Source of the DNA: Chara braunii
Taxonomy: Eukaryota; Plantae; Charophyceae
NCBI GenBank assembly: GCA_003427395.1
Contig: BFEA01000001.1
Coordinates: 1,694,280 to 1,758,279 of the forward strand
Length of the DNA: 64,000 nucleotides
Direction of reading: 5' to 3'
The notes beneath the pieces are model-generated. The model was not told the DNA's origin. It saw only the letters and a list, made by a program, of their open reading frames with translations, and did no database searches. How positions within the stretch are numbered: position 1 is the first letter of the stretch; every line of letters starts with the position of its first letter. This document shows positions 151-1,446 of this stretch, piece by piece. The position numbers were made by a program, and so were the translations under genes.

Positions 151-1446
151 AGTTATGTCATTCATCTTAGAAATAATGTCAACTCTTTACCTTAGTTATA
201 CACGAACAGGTTGCACAACTATTTTTCTCTTCATTGGGCATATAACTAAGCCATTCGTCTTAGAAACAATGCTTAGTCGCAGTGTTTAATAGCCAAGCGA
301 TATATATCTCTATGAACTTAATCTTCAAAAATGAGCGTAGAACTGAGTCATTCATCTTAGAAACAATACTCAGCCGACCCAAGTTACCTTCAGTTAGAGC
401 TTTTAATTATACTCTTTTGATTTGTGATAAGGCTATAGTTAGACCATTCATCTTAGAAACAATGTCTGACTAGCATTATTCTTATAAACATATAGATATA
501 TAAAATATAGAAAGTCTTATTCCTCTGTTCACATTATAATCCTGTGGCCTCAGACTTAGACCTTTCATCTTAGAAACAATGTCCAGTCTTTGGCTTGAGC
601 CTCCCCTCAGAATAAAACAACCAAAAGAGTTGAGTCATTCGTCTTAGAAATAATGCTCAACCCTCTTTTATCAGCAACAAGCGGTTATCGAGTAGCTGAA
701 AATTCAGAAATAAAAATTCTGAAGTGAGAGTTTTGGACAATCTGAAAATCCTGAATGGTCCTGAAGTGGTGAAAGGTCCGAAGACCCTGAAAACCACCTG
801 TTTAGGCAGGCTGCATCTTGTAGTGGTGAAGGGTGTCCTGAAGTGGTCAAGTGAGAGTTTTGGGCAGCCTGAAAATCCTGAATGGTCCTGAATTTGTGAA
901 AGGTCCGAAGACCATGAAAACCACCCTTCACCACTTGAGGATGCATCCTGCCTAAACATGTGGTTTTCAGGGTCTTCGGAGCTTTCACGACTTCAGGACC
1001 ATTCAGGATTTCCAGACCTGAATGGTCCTGAAGTGGTGAAAGGTCCGAAGACCTTGAAAACCACATTTTTAGGCAGGCTGCATCCTGAAGTGGTGAAGGG
1101 TGTTCTGCAGTGGTGATGAAAAATACGACTGTTGTTTACCTTCTCTCTTCTCAGCACTAAAAAAAAAAACAGAGTACCCTGGGTCAAGACCCAGAGACTA
1201 TTTAGAAACCAGCCAAAAATAAACAGCGACCAGACCATTCATCTTAGAAACAATGTCTGGCCCTCAAGGTTTGCACAATCAATACCCCATAGAAACAACA
1301 ACCAGACCATTCATCTTAGAAACAATGCCTGGTTAAATTAAATAAACGCAGCGACAAAGCCATTCATCTTAGAAACAATGCTTGGTCCTTCAGAAAATAG
1401 AACAAAACACAGCAATCGGGTCATCCATCTTAGAAACAATGCCCGA
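151..1446. repeat. Dispersed array of ~10 stem-loops with constant loop CATTCATCTTAGAAACAAT
   Basis: Loop starts at ~159, 252, 349, 445, 562, 637, 1236, 1308, 1361 and 1422. Each is flanked by a different inverted repeat, e.g. ACTAAGC/GCTTAGT, CTGAGT/ACTCAG, CCAGAC/GTCTGG, TCGGGT/GCCCGA. Confidence 0.9.
717..1115. repeat. ~125-bp minisatellite with one inverted unit
   Basis: CCTGAATGGTCCTGAAGTGGTGAAAGGTCCGAAGACC occurs at ~750, ~877 and ~1017, with a reverse-complement copy at ~925-1012. Confidence 0.85.

Follow-up and report, generated by a model that had tools for sequence, protein, structure and literature searches.

Why should an LTR-like sequence carry one 19-nucleotide motif about ten times, each time closed by a different self-complementary stem? 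This question is raised by the beginning of a 64,000-nucleotide stretch of the Chara braunii genome (contig BFEA01000001.1, positions 1,694,280 to 1,758,279; hereafter the window). The answer that we favor, with a probability of about 0.5, is that the ten predicted RNA hairpins form a multi-point binding pad near the transcript start, probably for the element's own Gag. According to the accessible text of PMC8396678, the choice of RNA by the Gag proteins of LTR retrotransposons is poorly defined outside yeast. A natural array in which a single six-base loop is combined with compensatory variants that already exist and with tips particular to each subfamily offers a direct test of such RNA selection. 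Moreover, replacement of hairpin tips in place would be an unusual case in which concerted evolution acts on a structural module alone. It could help to reveal how competing subfamilies come to differ in their cis-signals and in the factors that read them.

An array of hairpins within an LTR-like element

When up to three mismatches are allowed, the 19-mer is matched ten times between positions 159 and 1440, always on the plus strand of the window, compared to a chance expectation of 0.02. Five matches are exact, four carry one mismatch and one carries two. The array is real, and much as originally predicted: the matches start at 159, 252, 349, 445, 562, 636, 1236, 1308, 1361 and 1422, giving spacings of 93, 97, 96, 117, 74, 600, 72, 53 and 61 bases (53-117, with the one longer gap that had been noted), and all six stem pairs quoted in that prediction were found in the sequence. 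The longer gap is due to a separate, self-inverted fold-back insertion, which DNA contigs skip through a joint between 676 and 1162. This insertion, flanked by a short duplication and covered by reads to a very high depth, probably belongs to a separate, high-copy MITE-like family.

Across the ten copies, 91% of 100 stem cells are paired, whereas slid registers give 20-51%. Six of the seven pairs of the outer stem are changed on both sides, and the covariation score was reached by none of 500 shuffles. Pairing in the stem is weak at 159 and broken by interruptions at 562 and 1361. Nor does the 19-mer consist entirely of loop, as a 3-bp inner stem surrounding a hexaloop lies inside it.

Features of the array and its surroundings in the window.
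Feature	Positions	Strand	Remarks
LTR-like copy A	1..4825	-	5' end at 4825; cut off by the window start
Hairpin 10 (transcript order)	151..184	-	Weak outer stem; hexaloop UAAGAU at 164-169
Hairpin 9	245..277	-	Hexaloop UAAGAC
Hairpin 8	343..373	-	UAAGAU; sole position with the same 19-mer in L001; copy B version decayed
Hairpin 7	436..472	-	UAAGAU; shares outer stem and flanks with B 14569 and L001 228, where tips differ
Hairpin 6	552..589	-	UAAGAU; 19-mer restored at 563 by family majority
Hairpin 5	625..665	-	UAAGAC; longest outer stem; 19-mer restored at 651 by family majority
Fold-back (inverted-repeat) insertion	677..1161	none	Splits the array; absent from copy B
Hairpin 4	1230..1260	-	UAAGAU
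Hairpin 3	1301..1333	-	UAAGAU
Hairpin 2	1353..1387	-	UAAGAU
Hairpin 1	1416..1446	-	UAAGAU; flanks match B 14154 and L001 821; 19-mer restored at 1425 by family majority
TATA-like block, putative promoter	1677..1694	-	Found in all three copies, some 230 bases ahead of the array
ORF end with CX2CX4HX4C zinc knuckle	7704..7886	+	2.3 kb upstream of copy B
Sister LTR-like copy B	10199..18718	+	TG...CA; about 5.5 kb without the 15656-18675 insertion
Copy B array	14134..14868	+	Seven hairpins; loops UAAGUU, UAAGAU, UGAGUU; different tips; decayed site at 14665
PBS-like site	18721..18731	+	Begins TGG; two bases past the end of copy B

The array had been placed inside a giant LTR. Copy B upholds this assignment in its TG...CA ends, its length and the PBS-like site that directly follows it, whereas paired LTRs of this family, the other part of what the assignment implies, are absent from the window, within which one flank of each copy lies. 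Copies A and B are in opposite orientations and share a 5' end type as well as collinear blocks. Because the PBS-like site follows copy B, the sense strand of the family is fixed, and the strand relevant to the array in copy A is the minus strand rather than the plus strand on which the 19-mer was noticed. Given the TATA-like block upstream, the array would lie in an early part of the transcript.

Coding sequence is sparse. No pol of this family and no tRNA gene were found in the 64-kb window, and the 2.3 kb upstream of copy B contain no long ORF. The zinc knuckle upstream of copy B may, from its sequence pattern, be a remnant of Gag. Its match to Pfam zf-CCHC_4 (E=0.035) falls below the cut-off, and searches of proteins with the knuckle peptide recovered no family member; one gave 0 matches, and the other gave nine proteins matched via repeated short stretches over the knuckle.

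Several other features of the surrounding DNA were noted. Family 5' ends are arranged head to tail at 7701, 6403 and 4825 (minus), 1.3-1.6 kb apart and each preceded by an NCGN 4-mer; possibly the family has inserted repeatedly into its own upstream region. Just inside the LTR 5' ends are near-perfect palindromes (4795-4820, 6372-6398, 7671-7696 and 10205-10232) whose arms differ between copies while complementarity is kept. The upstream part of the LTR copies also includes, in sense orientation, a U6-like piece (61 bits; 6621-6720, minus) and an LSU rRNA-like piece (48 bits; 5185-5325, minus), and blocks similar to these recur in A and B. The 3-kb insert in copy B (15656-18675) has TG...CA ends, a 4-base TSD and 134-base inverted ends that are 94% alike, and a fragment resembling its end is present in copy A at about 3282-3554. 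The motif ACTTACCT, which can be read as a splice donor in antisense or as a 5' end like that of U1, occurs on the sense strand of the family LTRs at 60, 2063 and 2858 (minus) and at 12832 and 14924 (plus). It is also found at 55418 and 62701 (minus), in both LTRs of an unrelated element. This separate LTR element spans 55202-63606, its LTRs measure about 1.1 kb and are 86% alike, and it has minus-strand aspartyl protease and integrase domains. Elsewhere in the window, a 520-base inverted repeat (78%) lies amid LINE-like remnants at 30092-30610.

A shared hexaloop and subfamily-specific tips

A third copy of the family (L001) came from a pattern scan that gave eight loci in metagenome contigs and two in viral contigs; it is the sole family copy among them, as the other nine scanned loci have no similarity to the window. 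Copy L001 carries ten hairpins, of which one has the same 19-mer, at the position matching 349 in copy A, and nine are of other types; it is thus a mosaic. None of the seven hairpins of copy B retains an intact 19-mer. The idea of a constant 19-nucleotide loop therefore fails for the family as a whole: the 19-mer is specific to a subfamily, and what is conserved is the hexaloop, read on the opposite, LTR-sense strand.

From 39 matches to the loop motif in the three arrays, 27 hairpins were retained (10 of 15 in A, 7 of 10 in B and 10 of 14 in L001), two decayed sites being among those left out. On the sense strand, the only sequence shared by these 27 is the hexaloop UAAG(U/A)U on its 3-bp closing stem. 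Four hexaloop positions are kept in 26-27 of the 27, partly owing to the choice of hairpins by loop motif, and UGAGUU is the lone variant. In a scan blind to the motif, 20 of the 45 local hairpins detected in the arrays had it in their loop, compared to 1 of 147 in neighboring regions. In the inner stem 77 of 81 cells are paired (23-49 in slid registers), the 11 distinct stem combinations form 27 of 33 possible Watson-Crick pairs versus a permutation mean of 14.6, and double changes are seen at all three inner pairs. This comparison comprises three copies, in which the ten tips of copy A count as one event.

Since the inner stem of copy A is marginal in folding (pair probability 0.02-0.71), its assignment there rests on the comparison across copies. 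A covariance model built from the 27 hairpins found no further examples in the window or in L001, the next score being 13 bits. The hairpins match no Rfam family in the window, and the best hit in L001 has E=4.7; hammerhead and box C/D motifs were dropped accordingly, and nothing in the hairpins of the window matches a ribozyme or another known RNA model, as a retrozyme or other Rfam family would. Two loop interactions were also set aside, namely kissing with a downstream ACUUAC motif, which is unchanged alongside the A-type loop, and self-kissing, for which no conserved palindrome was evident by eye.

Predicted folding favors the LTR-sense strand. Shuffle z-scores are lower on this strand for 23 of the 27 hairpins (mean -2.4 versus -1.4), and a block of L001 gives -7.4 in sense and -4.0 in antisense, while the first six hairpins of copy A as a block are unexceptional (-1.0 and -0.5). 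Among the non-Watson-Crick pairs of the outer stems, 27 are G-U and 7 are A-C when read in sense (P=0.0008 against 1:1), which is a suggestive sign of the sense strand, G+T-rich composition alone predicting about 2:1.

The spacers between hairpins had been described as otherwise unique, but they match the spacers of the other two copies position by position. With the 19-nucleotide tip left out of the calculation, flank scores pair the hairpins of A, B and L001 collinearly, with best scores of 19-44 against a shuffled null whose mean is -11 and maximum 4.5. In 13 matched pairs between A and B or L001, flanks are 0.65 alike and tips 0.46, with a flank background of 0.51; since these flank scores also served to select the pairs, two of which hardly exceed background (0.53 and 0.57), the independent evidence lies in the collinearity. 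Within copy A the relation is inverted, with tips 0.94 alike and flanks at the background of 0.51. Tips within the other copies are 0.69 (B) and 0.61 (L001) alike.

These sequence comparisons suggest in-place replacement of the 19-nucleotide tips. Duplication of whole units would have homogenized the flanks as well, and the tip thus seems to travel as a module. At the position of hairpin 9, copies B (14760-14790) and L001 (25-45) have a short, tipless hairpin with a GUGG loop, as if a tip had been gained or lost as a unit. Covariation, both within the array and across the three copies, together with flanks at background within copy A, supports the original view that structure was selected rather than that a unit was simply duplicated, and the array is in all likelihood structurally selected. 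An origin of the spacers as MITE footprints was dropped, because they match the other copies and the one insertion is separate; nor are they recognizable as tandem units, although a few neighbors in L001 do resemble local duplicates.

Two DNA runs from a single sample yielded about 16,800 and 17,700 contigs aligning to positions 1-2500. Summed contig depth is 9,000-56,000 over the hairpins and below 150 beyond 2017, being high only from 1 to about 1990, which suggests that the family is large and that its core is conserved while its upstream part varies, although summed depth is not copy number. Among the matches listed, the family majority letters restore the 19-mer at three sites where copy A deviates (see the table). 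In some contigs the hairpin positions are connected out of order (470-244, 276-560 and 470-1230 among others), which would fit a shuffling of units or may reflect the alignment. RNA reads numbered 123 and 1976, from 6% and 12% of two runs, and one of these 2099 is 99% alike. They fall on both strands with opposite bias in the two runs, and no transcript start, end or splice joint was seen among them.

Candidate readers of the array

The best reading of these features remains the multivalent recognition array that was first proposed, as a candidate role. One loop motif is displayed on variable, covarying stems, and in its working the array would resemble a repeated stem-loop signal of the packaging type. 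Transcription would run along the LTR-sense strand and reach the array about 0.2-1 kb past the start, and many weak contacts with the loops would sum such that this RNA is selected for capsid assembly. Double template switches by reverse transcriptase, or gene conversion, could carry the 19-nucleotide tip of one hairpin onto the outer stem of another. Products in which both stems still pair would survive, and tips would thereby become homogenized within a lineage while flanks stay specific to their positions.

The exposed G of the loop is of the kind bound by zinc knuckles. The CCHC knuckle upstream of copy B speaks for Gag as the reader, but it is a weak, unplaced remnant. A packaging role also fits poorly in one respect, because an array inside the LTR may sit on short or 3' transcripts too. 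In the accessible text of PMC8396678, retroviral Gag zinc fingers pick RNA via signals near the 5' end, and Ty1 Gag is described as binding with low specificity. We also consider, as an unlikely reading, a modular RNA barcode made of about ten scaffold stems, exchangeable 19-nucleotide tips and a shared hexaloop, wherein a subfamily that converted all of its tips by reverse transcriptase template switching would switch the Gag or helper that recognizes it.

Binding by Gag has to be weighed against a host factor reading the same selected hairpins, for example a protein that acts in export, stability or anti-silencing, or U1 snRNP via UAAGU, with control of transcript 3'-end processing or silencing as the effect. 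This explanation is possible, though we hold it tentatively. All of the structural evidence fits it equally, and a loop that is invariant across subfamilies about 71-76% alike suits a slowly evolving reader; however, wholesale homogenization of tips is more easily linked to a reader encoded by the element, and the analysis points to no specific host factor. For U1 in particular, the UAAGU loop presumably equates to intron positions +2 to +6 of a splice donor, and the lone variant UGAGUU keeps the donor consensus, but we take the A-type loop UAAGAU to form only four base pairs with U1.

That the hairpins have no selected function, and reflect old duplications of units, gene conversion and template-driven correction where inverted repeats were imperfect, is improbable. 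Templated correction predicts perfect Watson-Crick stems, no strand bias and no retention of the loop, whereas four loop positions are kept, adjoining stem bases change in pairs and G-U pairs are in excess; conversion, furthermore, ends at the tip boundary, and the outer stems stay matched to other copies. What speaks for this explanation are the neighbors in L001 that resemble local duplicates (821/712 and 422/341, flank score 12), the contigs with other hairpin orders and the broken hairpins of copy B at 14455, 14845 and 14665. More improbable still are duplex-DNA sites for a family-specific transcription or anti-silencing protein, as with VANC targets or Sirevirus palindromes. It is true that a 19-mer specific to one subfamily recurs in non-coding DNA close to a promoter-like block, and VANC motifs vary by family and accumulate as repeats, as reported in the available part of PMC5735166. 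Yet such recognition needs neither variable stems that keep their pairing nor strand bias, and all copies here run in one direction and lie past the TATA-like block; the palindromes of Sirevirus, by contrast, are described as preceding the TATA box (PMC4728375).

Comparison with known systems

A literature search found no description of this arrangement, most subscription papers lying outside its reach. The CsrB and RsmZ sponge RNAs, with their GGA loops, and the Xist A-repeat offer one loop motif on many hairpins to one protein; these are host non-coding RNAs with known readers, and the array is part of a mobile-element LTR. The dispersed packaging signals of MS2 and STNV likewise present a short conserved loop on several stems.

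Among LTR elements, Ogre/Tat and Phygy constitute the comparison set of large-LTR, non-chromovirus Ty3/Gypsy elements (PMC6317226). Ogre/Tat elements have LTRs of about 5 kb with repeats in non-coding parts, but the accessible text of PMC6317226 describes tandem repeats rather than loop-conserved hairpins, and the family studied here is unplaced without pol sequence. Phygy (Ty3/Gypsy) shares the NCGN target 4-mers, which are found here in three of three host-side 5' flanks and in the TSD of the nested insert, but is described as compact (PMC6317226), whereas the LTR of this family alone is about 5.5 kb. TR-GAG and LARD are non-autonomous elements that lack pol between their LTRs, and TR-GAG elements carry gag only and are under 4 kb in the account of PMC4350172. 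A knuckle followed by non-coding DNA up to copy B would fit a gag-only organization, but the size is far above that of TR-GAG.

VANDAL elements and their VANC proteins provide another likeness, in that a family-specific short motif is multiplied in non-coding element sequence (PMC5735166). They are DNA transposons (Mutator-like) whose motif is recognized in duplex DNA and in which whole tandem repeats are described as spreading (PMC5735166). In contrast, the element examined here is LTR-like, its flanks are position-specific and at background within copy A, and pairing is selected; no ORF for a VANC-type anti-silencing protein was recognized in the window. LTRs of Sirevirus, a Copia group, contain about seven hairpin-forming repeats each that vary by locus and family, and recombination in co-packaged RNA has been proposed for them (PMC4728375). 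However, in the text available from PMC4728375 their arms are conserved, the centers vary and the repeats lie before the TATA box; the array shows the converse, a conserved loop between variable arms, and comes after the TATA-like block.

Parallels among packaging signals are retroviral Psi, which is read by Gag zinc knuckles (PMC8396678), and coronavirus SL5, whose repeated UUYYGU hexaloops have a suggested packaging role (PMC12513883). The likeness lies in a short conserved loop that recurs on a number of stems, close to what is presumed to be the 5' end of a packaged RNA. Unlike these packaging signals, the Chara array consists of about ten copies inside an LTR, each with a two-tier stem and a UAAG(U/A)U loop, and with tips that appear to be exchanged between positions. 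Judged from the copies compared, this exchange of hairpin tips on fixed scaffolds would be its distinctive feature.
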